DNA of 34,826 nt from a virus (lineage: Duplodnaviria; Heunggongvirae; Uroviricota; Caudoviricetes): the IMG/VR virus record IMGVR_UViG_2877251553_000002; one strand, written 5' to 3'. Under the pieces are notes generated by a model that was not told the DNA's origin, searched no databases, and was given only the letters and a program-made list of their open reading frames with translations. Each line of letters opens with the position of its first letter. Position 1 is the stretch's first letter. Below are positions 22,610 to 27,927 of the stretch, piece after piece. A program made the position numbers and the translations under genes.

Positions 22610-23677
<1,068 letters not shown>

Positions 23678-23686
23678 ATGGCGACA

Positions 23687-23902
23687 TTATTCACCTCTCG
23701 CAGCCTTACGCTTATCTTCTCTTATTTTGAAATACAGATTCGTCAGATAAGTCAGAAGCCCCAGAAGCAGACTTCCCAGCACACCAATCGCAGCCCACTG
23801 TGATGGACTGACCTGATCCAACCACTGCAAAAACCAGTAGCCGGCACTGCCGGCGGAGGTGCCGTAGGCAATGCCCGTTGAAATTTTGTCCATGGATTTC
23901 AT
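23687..23902 (-). CDS. class II holin (phage 21 S / EssD-like)
   Basis: 71-aa protein [30 protein letters not shown]... with two hydrophobic segments and charged C-terminus, closely resembling lambdoid S21-type holins. Confidence 0.8.
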
Positions 23903-24194
23903 AGCCTCACCTCCGCAAATAACGGATGGCGTAGTTTTACACTGAGAAATGAAAGGGATTTGAAAAGAAAAAAACGCAAAAGCGGGCGAAACGATATATA
24001 CAGTAAGGAAAGCACTCTATCCAACAAACCACCCACAGTTAATCGGAATAAAAGCAGAGTGCTTATGAATGATCGCACGCCCGAAGGTTAGTATTTCTGC
24101 ACAGCAATTTTGCAAAAAAAGGCGATCATTCATAACTTAAACGTCTTTCAGTCACTCCGGGATTTCCCATCATCGCAGACTGAAAGACTCTGAC

Positions 24195-24269
<75 letters not shown>

Positions 24270-24272
24270 ATA

Positions 24273-24348
<76 letters not shown>

Positions 24349-24350
24349 GC

Positions 24351-24427
24351 TGGCCCACCACCGAGGACTCGAACCTCGCACCGTCAACTTAGAAGGTTGA
24401 TGCTCTATCCGGATGAGCTAGTGGTGG
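24351..24427 (-). tRNA. tRNA-Arg (anticodon UCU)
   Basis: Reverse complement CCACCACTAGCTCATCCGGATAGAGCATCAACCTTCTAAGTTGACGGTGCGAGGTTCGAGTCCTCGGTGGTGGGCCA; 7-bp acceptor stem, anticodon loop CTTCTAA. Confidence 0.75.
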
Positions 24428-24428
24428 T

Positions 24429-24505
24429 TGGTGGCCCTTGCTGGACTTGAACCAGCGACCTGGCGATTATGAGTCGCTCGCTCTGACCAACTGAGCTAAA
24501 GGGCC
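24429..24505 (-). tRNA. tRNA with CAU anticodon (tRNA-Ile2-like, or Met)
   Basis: Reverse complement GGCCCTTTAGCTCAGTTGGTCAGAGCGAGCGACTCATAATCGCCAGGTCGCTGGTTCAAGTCCAGCAAGGGCCACCA; resembles ileX-type tRNA. Confidence 0.8.
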
Positions 24506-24585
24506 GGAGGCAGAATAATAACCATATGTCATCACATCTGCAAACTCATCTGACCACCAGCACGTTTAACGTCCTGTGCCGTTTT

Positions 24586-25886
<1,301 letters not shown>

Positions 25887-26224
25887 CTGATAAAAGCGCC
25901 CTGTACTGGTTAGCAATAGCAAATTTACTACCAGCTGCTCTGATTTCAAGAAAGCTGTACACCTCCCTTATGCCTATATTTTTAACCGGAACACCACCAA
26001 AGTATTCACTTATGATTTTCAACCTCTGGTTGTGTCTTTTCATGGTGTTTGTGCTTAATTGTCTACGCTCTATTTCATTTCTGAAATTTAATATCAGCTC
26101 GCAGAATAATGTTACGCTATTACCTTTTATTCTATCCAGTAAGCTTATATGTTGCGTGGATAATAATTCCATATTTGCCGCAATAGCCTCATTAACTGCA
26201 ATTCTTTTGTCTCTTCCGATTCCA
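25887..26224 (-). pseudogene. lambda-family integrase, internal N-proximal fragment
   Basis: Reads ...GIGRDKRIAVNEAIAANMELL...NSVTL...AIANQYRALLS up to the IS911 junction, colinear with lambda Int residues ~36-160; 5' end replaced by an IS1 terminus at 26225. Confidence 0.8.
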
Positions 26225-26352
26225 GGTGATGACTCCAACTTACTGATAGTGTTTTATGTTCAGATAATGCCCGATGACCTTGTCATGCAGCTCCACCGAT
26301 TTTGAGAACGACAGTGACTTCCGTCCCAGCCTTGCCAGATGTTGTCTCAGAG
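26225..26352 (-). mobile_element. IS1 terminal fragment (~128 bp)
   Basis: GGTGATGACTCCAACTTACTGATAGTGTTTTATGTTCAGATAATGCCCGATGAC... matches the IS1 end at 4461-4590, then is cut by the ISEc8-like terminus at 26353. Confidence 0.8.
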
Positions 26353-26388: not shown

Positions 26389-27927
26389 TTATTCAGTCGG
26401 CAGTGCTACGCGCCAGGGGAGCAGTTCGCCGACCCGGTTTATCGGCCAGTCGGCTATGACGTCAAGTACATAGCGGAGGTAGCTTTCTGGCTCCACTCCG
26501 TTCAGTTTGCACGTCCCGATCAGGCTGTACAGCAGCGCTCCCCGCTCTCCTCCATGATCCGAACCGAAGAACAGGTAGTTTTTGCGGCCCAGACTGACCA
26601 TCCGCAACGCATTTTCAGCGATGTTATTGTCCGCCTCAGCCCAGCCATCATCTGCATAGTACGTCAGCGCCGGCCACTGGTTCAGGGCGTATGCGAACGC
26701 TTTCGCCAGTTCTGAGTGTCGCGACAGGGTTTTCATCTTTTCACGCAGCCAGCTTTCCAGGGATTTCAGCAGCGGTTTCGTTTTCAACTGACGTTCGGCA
26801 AGGCGCTGCTCCGCCGTCATTCCCCTTATCTCTGCCTCGATGGCGTACAGTTCGCCGATCCGTTTCAGCGCTTCCTCCGTCAGGGCTGACGGGGTGCGAA
26901 CGTGCACATCGTGGATTTTACGGCGGGCGTGAGCCCAACAGGCGGCTTCCGTTATCCGGCCATCCCGGTACAGCTCGTTGAACCCGGCGTATGCATCCGC
27001 CTGCAGTACACCACTGAACCCCGCAAGATGGGTCTGCGGATGGATGCCTTTTCTGTCCGGGCTGTAAGCGAACCACACCGCCGGCGCCAGCGTTGACCCG
27101 GCGTTACGGTCGTCACGAACGTAGGTCCATAACCGCCCGGTCTTCGTTTTCTTATTGCCTGGCAACAGCACCGGGACAGGCGTGTCATCAGCATGGAGCT
27201 TACCGTCAGTCAGCACATAGTCCTGAAGCGCTTCTTCCAGCGGTGACAGTAGCCGGCAGCATGCATCCACCCAGCCCGACAGCAGTGAACGACTCAGCTC
27301 CACGCCCTGGCGGCCGTACATTTCAGACTGGCGGTACAGCGGGGTGTGCTCTGCATACTTTGAGATCAGCACGCGGGCCAGCAGCCCCGGTCCTGCGATA
27401 CCCCGCTCGATGGGCCGTGAAGGCGCGGGGGCCTGCACGATGGCATCGCACTGAGTACAGGCATGCTTTTCACGTACAGTCCGGATAACCCGGAAGACGC
27501 TGCGCATCAACTCCAGCTGTTCGGCGGCATCCTCACCCGGATAGCTCAGTGAGCCTCCACATTCCGGGCAGCATGACGCTGCCGGCAGCAGCCGTTTTTC
27601 ATCGCGGGGGAGTGATTCGGGGAACGGTTTGCGGGTGCGGGTTTGACGCAGCGGGCGCTGCACGGCCGGGTCGTCAACCCGACCGGTAAGGGTATCACTT
27701 TCTTTCTGAAGTGCCTTCAGGTCAGCTTCCATCTGTGCGATACGACGGGAGACTTTTTCGGAGCGGCTGCCGAAGTTCATCCGGCGCAGCTTATCCAGCT
27801 GTGCCTGCAGATGGTCTATTTCGCGTTCACGCTCGTTCAGCTTTTCCAGCAGGGCACGGTTCAGCGCCTCCTGTTCGGCAAGGAGACGTTTCAGTGCATT
27901 GATATCGTCAGGAAGTGAGCTGCTCAT
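26389..27927 (-). CDS. IS66-family transposase TnpC, intact (512 aa)
   Basis: Single uninterrupted ORF; the only intact TnpC among the three copies. Confidence 0.85.

Follow-up and report, generated by a model that had tools for sequence, protein, structure and literature searches.

The spacer between a tRNA array and a holin gene in a prophage carries a conserved RNA structure, a conclusion that we hold with high confidence. In particular, three adjacent domains, named I3, I2 and H3, extend over about 180 nt (about 220 nt with the terminator included), and their helices are kept through compensatory and G-U changes in homologues down to about 70% identity. On balance, we lean towards a reading in which this element is the 3′ trailer belonging to a tRNA operon of the phage; it would be released as a stable RNA and would act through its loops. 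In other words, the element is a candidate for a new phage small RNA, previously unannotated.

Genomic setting and the inverted repeat

The window, that is the whole stretch of 34,826 nucleotides analysed (IMG/VR record IMGVR_UViG_2877251553_000002, Caudoviricetes), presents the following features around the element, from higher to lower coordinates.

24639 to about 25890: right IS911 copy, annotated as IS911 family in E. coli genomes
24599 to 24620, minus strand: tR′-like intrinsic terminator, CCCGC-UUUAU-GCGGG followed by U7 (read from the sequence)
24515 to 24544, minus strand: promoter-like site of sigma-70 type, TTTGCA-18-TATTAT or TTGCAG-17-TATTAT, whose −10 hexamer ends 9 nt before tRNA-Met (scan)
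24195 to 24505, minus strand: tRNA array (ARAGORN; Rfam tRNA model, 56-70 bits)
24429 to 24505, minus strand: tRNA-Met(CAU) (ARAGORN)
24351 to 24427, minus strand: tRNA-Arg(UCU) (ARAGORN)
24273 to 24348, minus strand: tRNA-Thr(UGU) (ARAGORN)
24195 to 24269, minus strand: tRNA-Gly(UCC) (ARAGORN)
24143 to 24188, minus strand: domain I3 (inverted repeat and alignment A4)
24063 to 24135, minus strand: domain I2, the feature originally reported (repeat search, fold and alignment A3)
24012 to 24062, minus strand: domain H3 (fold and alignment)
23968 to 23988, minus strand: decayed intrinsic terminator, CGCCCGC-UUUU-GCG-UUUUUUU (alignment with relatives)
23687 to 23902, minus strand: S21-type (class II) holin gene, 71 aa, with the dual start MKSM (ORF list)
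22958 to 23677: left IS911 copy, truncated, 720 bp

All genes around the element lie on the minus strand, and the tRNA-holin spacer measures 291 nt. As the first-pass annotation had placed it, the reported feature lies between tRNA-Gly, which ends at 24195, and the holin gene, which starts at 23902 and is annotated in relatives as holin or class II holin; this gene is a neighbour and lies outside the RNA. A 961-bp segment (23678-24638) comprising tR′, the tRNAs, the element and the holin gene is flanked by inverted copies of IS911. What distinguishes the left copy from the right one is an indel of 1 nt within a C-run (near 23608-23613). Two further minus-strand frames were characterized from their translations: a 147-aa ORF (25795-26238) resembles an N-terminal integrase fragment, and a 512-aa product (26389-27927) resembles a transposase of the IS66 TnpC type, IS66 being also the annotation found in related records.

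The tR′-like terminator is located upstream of the promoter-like site of the tRNAs, with the IS911 end 18 nt further upstream; it is kept in relatives downstream of a Q-like gene and is absent from the list returned by the terminator scan. Sub-threshold Rfam matches also fall on it (Trp_leader, 27.7 bits; isrK, 16.7 bits). A more intact arrangement is found in E. coli FDAARGOS_943, in which a Q-like (DUF1133) gene, tR′, the tRNAs, the spacer, the class II holin, lysozyme and Rz genes, terminase and structural genes succeed one another on a single strand. With respect to the intact relative L309, the window lacks Q, pR′, lysozyme and Rz, and IS911 replaces the lysis genes past the holin. Given that Q and pR′ are lost and that the terminator following the element is decayed, the window copy may be vestigial, sitting in an IS911-disrupted prophage remnant.

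The inverted repeat has its arms at 24063-24076 (TTATGAATGATCGC) and 24122-24135 (GCGATCATTCATAA). A repeat search returned exactly the coordinates and the complementarity that had been claimed, that is 14 of 14 complementary positions with 45 nt in between. This pair is the longest local perfect inverted repeat of the window and the one and only perfect 14-mer pair with a loop of at most 100 nt; since any such 14-nt pair arose in just 2 of 300 dinucleotide-preserving shuffles of the window, a chance origin is unlikely. The next-longest local perfect repeats have arms of 11 nt (20918-20928/20969-20979, inside phage structural genes) and of 10 nt (32805-32814/32860-32869), and their loops measure 40-45 nt.

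Folding of the minus-strand RNA agrees with the existence of a structure. Specifically, the interval 24050-24145 reaches −25.6 kcal/mol (z = −2.73) and the entire tRNA-holin spacer −92.9 kcal/mol (z = −3.5), the latter folding into three adjacent domains. The first-pass annotation had also remarked that no T-run adjoins the repeat and had judged a simple terminator unlikely. Both remarks hold: no T-run directly follows the stem on either strand, and no terminator is listed there by the scan. Moreover, an intrinsic terminator was rejected as an identity for this helix because the stem is A/U-rich and encloses 45 nt.

Architecture and conservation of the RNA

Domain I3 starts 7 nt after tRNA-Gly and is closed by an 11-bp stem (24178-24188 paired with 24143-24153). 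Inside this stem, an invariant asymmetric internal loop (UGCGAUGAU opposite GGAGU) is followed by a GGG/CCC inner stem and by a variable apical loop. When compared by eye with the cores of K-turn, C/D-box, sarcin-ricin and hammerhead motifs, the internal loop gave no fit. In domain I2, the two arms of the repeat form helix P1, which closes a three-way junction holding hairpins A and B. Hairpin A pairs 24111-24118 with 24094-24101 and exposes a near-invariant 9-nt loop, AAAUUGCUG, at 24102-24110; hairpin B (CC-UUCG-GG, 24080-24087) is seen in the RIBOSUM consensus. Finally, H3 is a bipartite hairpin that directly abuts P1 and contains a near-invariant G/U-rich stretch, GGGUGGUUUGUUGG. The picture of a free-standing hairpin with a 45-nt loop, from which the analysis had started, thus has to be replaced by that of one helix of a three-way junction, which encloses two hairpins and is itself part of a three-domain RNA of about 180 nt.

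The conservation of this architecture was evaluated by RNAalifold and by pair counts on alignment A3, which comprises 49 distinct sequences of I2 and H3. In this alignment, P1 has 15 pairs, of which 5 are changed on both sides, and is 98.6% paired; hairpin A has 8 pairs, 3 of them changed on both sides, and is 99% paired; and the outer stem of H3 (8 pairs, 4 changed on both sides, 99.7% paired) occurs in at least three different compensated versions. The inner stem of H3 is 97.5% paired and varies by one-sided G-U changes only. Single positions illustrate the behaviour of the helices: among homologues, pair 3 of P1 switches between U-A and A-U, and pair 11 is found as G-C, U-A or A-U. The RNAalifold consensus predicts P1, hairpin A and the bipartite H3, with a total of 40 pairs; 12 of these show both-side changes, which mostly separate two main clades and a few sub-lineages, so that the independent compensatory events are modest in number.

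Controls in which the 3′ partners were slid by 1-3 columns retain far less pairing: 39-50% of the cells are paired, as opposed to 98.7% in the proposed structure, and the cells changed on both sides number 41 at most, versus 144. In addition, the observed score for pairing and covariation was reached by none of 500 shuffles. The same holds for I3 in alignment A4 (29 distinct sequences), where 97.8% of the cells are paired, versus 35-60% after sliding, and 4 pairs are changed on both sides. Rather than being absent from all homologous leaders, the structure recurs in them.

A perfect 14-bp inverted repeat could also be a property of the DNA, forming the terminal inverted repeats of a miniature transposable element (MITE), a cruciform, or an operator bound by a dimeric protein, all the more so as the folds of the single sequence are nearly equal on the two strands (−25.6 versus −23.7 kcal/mol). 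The alignment, however, distinguishes the strands. G-U cells number 263 on the strand of the tRNAs and late genes and 7 on the opposite one, an asymmetry not expected from DNA symmetry, and the consensus energy computed by alifold is lower in sense (−71.7 kcal/mol) than in antisense (−52.1 kcal/mol); a DNA-level palindrome is therefore argued against. Furthermore, the inner hairpins and H3 covary as well, the arms in HK639-type copies carry one mismatch and one G-U pair, and the sequence on either side of the element shows no target-site duplication. As for a MITE or IS identity, it was rejected on the strand-asymmetric conservation, on the lack of unrelated contexts and on a median of one copy per genome, the element occupying one genomic context with no plasmid copies. 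Altogether, we regard a DNA-level function as highly improbable. The G-U bias agrees instead with the earlier proposal of a structure at the RNA level, on the strand of the late transcript, where the fold is conserved.

Even less credit, close to none, can be given to the idea that the region encodes a peptide. A frame of 38 codons (MNDRLFLQNCC...) does exist in the window, its ATG lying inside the 5′ arm at 24131-24133 on the minus strand, and HK639 has a frame that by eye is partly similar. The T-run between P1 and hairpin A, however, varies by 1-3 nt among close relatives, and since such length changes shift the 38-codon frame, a coding function was rejected. In HK639-type copies there is no ATG at that place and a stop follows after 27 codons; moreover, no Shine-Dalgarno sequence lies upstream, and substitutions follow the pattern of paired helices.

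The element is not confined to the window. Four phages (phi467, which is a Stx phage, 689R5, PhiR47_1 and 606R7) share the spacer at 97% identity and the late leader of HK639 at 75%, and a distant blastn search of the spacer against 50,697 phage records gave 6 matches, all lambdoid. Among complete E. coli genomes, 536 of 5426 (about 10%) carry it, with a median of one copy per genome; all matches are chromosomal, none lies on a plasmid and none is annotated. At least 138 loci with the element, at 70-100% identity, were collected from viral contigs by a pattern scan followed by a blastn filter. Species-representative genomes with the element include those of E. coli, Shigella flexneri, Enterobacter hormaechei, Phytobacter ursingii, Yokenella regensburgei and Citrobacter sedlakii, of which those of E. 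coli and S. flexneri match the window at 100% along the 241 nt included in the comparison. Intact copies are carried, for instance, by EAEC 042 (NZ_CP042934.2, about 1637718-1637922) and by lysogens of phi467 or HK639. An exact 23-nt match to the H3 pattern was also encountered in a contig of a Cloacimonadota MAG (L224, 2922-2944); blastn shows no homology to the element there, and this match is probably due to chance or contamination.

The three domains are not inseparable. I3 is missing at loci L186, L207 and L228, and H3 at L006, L010 and L053; because of these partial copies, the domains may be independent modules rather than parts of one RNA. A covarying copy of I3 was also observed alone in Yokenella regensburgei (L227, 14-66, minus strand), directly after tRNA-Ser, and in this guise I3 looks like an independent module trailing a tRNA.

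Loss or exchange of domains in some lineages, together with the state of the window copy, which sits in a decayed prophage with a broken terminator, is what could be expected of a passenger, that is a structured spacer without a function of its own that hitch-hikes with the tRNA-Gly cassette during lambdoid recombination. A passenger, however, would hardly be expected to show compensatory changes in its helices and invariant loops at an overall identity of 70-80%; compensated helices and invariant loops argue for purifying selection on the RNA fold. As the element is moreover found across several enterobacterial genera, we judge the passenger reading quite unlikely.

Searches of known RNA families did not identify the element. 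Specifically, an Rfam 15 cmscan of the window interval 23600-24700 and of the HK639 interval L004:2240-3200, with E-values up to 10, placed no family on it, the overlapping matches being noise (for example sR38 with 12 bits, or istR with 26 bits where 45 would be required). The same scans recovered tRNAs and STnc100 where they are expected. Likewise, strings of characteristic element sequence had no relevant match in the searchable full-text literature.

Linkage to the tRNA array and to the late genes

The most constant neighbour of the element is a tRNA gene. Of 106 distinct upstream contexts, 88 have an intact tRNA-Gly(UCC) immediately before the element and on its strand, and the remaining ones mostly show another tRNA or a remnant of tRNA-Gly. 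The distance from the tRNA to the start of I2 is 58-59 nt in copies with I3 and 1-3 nt in copies without it. At the other end, 35 of 56 distinct downstream contexts have a terminator-like hairpin with a U-run 10-45 nt past H3, and at least five unrelated sequences are used for this purpose. In the other 21 contexts, window included, the scan did not find a strong terminator after H3. Relatives have GCCCGC-UUUU-GCGGGC/U followed by a U-run, and in the window GCGGG has changed into GCGUU. The element therefore lies between the last tRNA of the array and a terminator, on the same strand, which is the position of a 3′ external transcribed spacer (3′ETS), and we consider it probable that it is the trailer unit of the tRNA array.

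The array itself may have a promoter of its own. Most arrays that begin with tRNA-Met, of both element types, are preceded by TTGCAA-17-TATTAT or TATCAT, ending 9 nt before the tRNA; the site is also present in the intact relative L309, and phage 689R5 keeps the hexamers although the spacer has diverged. Lying downstream of tR′, this conserved promoter-like site points to a transcription of the tRNA array that does not depend on Q. In most lineages, promoter-like site, tRNAs, RNA and terminator look like one autonomous unit that was inserted downstream of tR′. The second slot of the array is hypervariable according to ARAGORN: it holds Arg(UCU) in the window (24351-24427) and Lys(UUU), Phe(AAA/GAA) or Leu(UAA) elsewhere. 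In other arrays the anticodon in this slot is UUA, labelled 'Stop', which would be suppressor-like, and some anticodon loops are abnormal ('???').

The link with the holin is much weaker. Of 80 viral loci encoding the same holin (89-100% identity), only 26 carry the element; in HK639 and L127, moreover, it precedes unrelated lysis genes. Because most of these holin loci lack the element and unrelated cassettes can follow it, the element is, from its distribution, part of the tRNA array rather than a regulator associated with the holin. Between the element and the lysis genes there can be as little as about 100 nt or over 500 nt, the latter in copies of the HK639 type. The first-pass annotation had presented the repeat as a feature of the holin leader, an attribution that gives way to the association with tRNA-Gly(UCC). 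As a whole, its interpretation as a conserved RNA structure on the late strand, other than a terminator, stands; a lone hairpin and an attachment to the holin do not.

HK639 offers a further view of this region. There, UCAAAUUCAAAUA followed by GCCUCGCUUCGGCGAGG and U6 is one example of a feature that relatives show, a terminator hairpin with a U-tail behind an A/U-rich single strand, which was looked for as a mark of Hfq-dependent prophage sRNAs and is weakened in the window. After the element's terminator come STnc100 with its own terminator (52.6 bits against a threshold of 47) and then a further terminator. This copy of STnc100 (RF02076; L004, 2754-2959, plus strand) is above the gathering score. 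The HK639 late leader is a chain of RNA units, each with its own terminator, with four sense terminators between Q and the lysis genes. No promoter-like site was found in HK639 between tR′ and the element, and for this reason the RNA would come from readthrough only in this phage; a Q-modified polymerase would ignore the terminator of the element, which weighs against a discrete trailer RNA in this case.

These data also bear on a role in cis, in which the element would be the leader of the late lysis mRNA; after tRNA excision, its stacked hairpins would provide this mRNA with a 5′ end protected from RNase E attack of the 5′-end-dependent kind, or they would be a processing site for RNase III or RNase E at which the tRNAs are uncoupled from the lysis and morphogenesis message. 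This possibility, the main alternative but one that we consider rather unlikely, is in line with the location of the element, which is always found past the Q-dependent promoter region and ahead of the lysis genes, in the same orientation, and with the short distance (1-7 nt) of I3 or I2 from the tRNA 3′ end, the place at which a new 5′ end would arise; the A/U-rich linkers and the lack of an internal promoter in HK639 would fit as well. A mere stabiliser or cleavage site, however, needs no near-invariant loops over about 180 nt. Besides, the lysis genes of most lineages lie beyond a terminator that follows the element, the distance from the element to them varies, with another sRNA gene lying in between, and two thirds of the leaders with the same holin are without the element. 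As regards RNase III, a typical substrate is double-stranded RNA that stays largely regular for about two turns of the helix, whereas P1 runs for 13-15 pairs before meeting the junction and I3 has 11 + 3 pairs with a large internal loop; the 14-bp P1 is, in other words, shorter than such a substrate. Since a terminator follows the element and the array has a promoter-like site, a discrete RNA product is favoured over the processing or regulatory role in the late transcript that the first-pass annotation had considered and that the element may nevertheless have.

Proposed role and comparison with known systems

We therefore return to the tRNA-operon trailer, for which a course of events can be proposed; beyond a conserved RNA structure downstream of tRNAs, its steps are ones that we infer. 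The element would be co-transcribed with the tRNAs; in lysogens, transcription would start at the promoter of the array itself, and in lytic growth at pR′, with Q as antiterminator. By analogy with 3′ETS-leuZ, the RNA could then be cut free upon maturation of the tRNA-Gly 3′ end, by RNase E acting in A/U-rich linkers, and release as a stable small RNA is, on this analogy, the most likely outcome. Its helices and the terminator hairpin would protect it, allowing it to persist. The near-invariant sequences AAAUUGCUG, UGCGAUGAU/GGAGU and GGGUGGUUUGUUGG would act on a protein or RNA partner, and the RNA might serve as a small regulatory or sponge RNA resembling 3′ETS-leuZ and the neighbouring prophage sRNAs. 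That it works in trans as a discrete RNA is a tentative proposal, to which we give somewhat less than even chances. Within the window, sequences complementary to the loop of hairpin A or to the G/U stretch of H3 were found at chance level only, or on the element's own opposite strand. A more specific function as partner of the tRNA array, different from that of an ordinary base-pairing sRNA, in which the RNA would be a decoy or inhibitor of a host defence nuclease that targets tRNAs or would sequester, to the benefit of the phage, a host factor for RNA processing or chaperoning (RNase E, Hfq or ProQ), the invariant loops being sites of protein recognition, is a long shot.

Prophages of pathogenic E. 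coli and Shigella are a reservoir of sRNAs that rewire host regulation, and the stretch from Q/pR′ to the lysis genes is a hot spot for them. The element would add a large, structured and widespread member, unseen by annotation pipelines and Rfam models. The covariance model built in this work would permit its systematic annotation, and the conserved loops are targets for mutagenesis. If the reading as nuclease decoy or sequestering RNA were true, it would represent a new class of counter-defence or host-takeover RNA of phages, inherited together with tRNA-Gly(UCC). In addition, given its strict linkage to the tRNA array, one may ask if RNAs other than tRNAs travel as cargo in the tRNA clusters of phages, and the stable RNAs of T4 prompt the same question.

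The T4 'species 1 and 2' (RNA C and RNA D) are stable RNAs encoded at the distal end of the T4 tRNA cluster. They are structured RNAs made in one transcript with a phage tRNA cluster, at whose distal end they lie, as is proposed for the element, and to our knowledge their function is still unexplained. They belong, however, to an unrelated phage group, and blastn against the 50,697 phage records detected no similarity between them and the element.

Closer to the lambdoid context, the put antiterminator RNAs of HK022 and HK639 are cis-encoded, consist of two stem-loops over about 70 nt and replace the N protein (PMC9378689). Put RNAs and the element share the character of stem-loop-rich nascent RNAs of lambdoid phages upstream of terminators. 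Put RNAs, which make RNA polymerase resistant to terminators in cis, are located just downstream of early promoters, whereas the element occupies the Q-dependent late region and shows no link to antitermination; a put-type antiterminator was rejected as an identity, as tR′ and the tRNAs precede the element.

The region 3′ of pR′ is a documented hot spot of sRNAs (PMC4104026; bioRxiv 10.64898/2026.05.13.724894), and STnc100, PasD, PasA/PasC and AgvB/AsxR are all encoded between Q/pR′ and the lysis genes (PMC4104026; PMC8550237; bioRxiv 10.64898/2026.05.13.724894). These prophage sRNAs and the element share the same 'moron' niche 3′ of pR′, are structured and end in intrinsic terminators; in particular, the Pas sRNAs adjoin holin/lysozyme operons, and in HK639 the element and STnc100 are adjacent units. 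The resemblance does not extend to identity. The window has no RF02076 match, STnc100 is a separate unit in HK639, and the published PasD1 stretch (PMC8550237) differs. Over the partial sequences of the E2348/69 genes that were compared, the PasA stretch (AAGUACAUCUAUCC...) is unrelated, which led to the rejection of PasA and PasC, and PasB lies between tail genes. AgvB and AsxR, which measure 51-60 nt, are convergent to the late transcript, whereas the element lies on the sense strand and is linked to tRNAs. Judged by the Rfam scans and these partial Pas sequences, the element is not a Pas sRNA, AgvB/AsxR, STnc100 or Esr41.

A further comparison is with 3′ETS-leuZ, an RNA of about 50 nt of which the tRNA-linked element would be the phage counterpart. 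This host RNA is the 3′ external transcribed spacer of the glyW-cysT-leuZ transcript of E. coli and Salmonella (Lalaouna et al. 2015, cited in PMC5222698) and is excised from the tRNA precursor by RNase E (PMC5222698). The two have no sequence similarity in common, and they differ in several respects: 3′ETS-leuZ is chromosomal and a proven Hfq-bound sponge, whereas the element is prophage-borne, about 180-220 nt long, composed of three covarying domains and known from sequence. Both, however, lie between the last tRNA of a polycistronic transcript and an intrinsic terminator.
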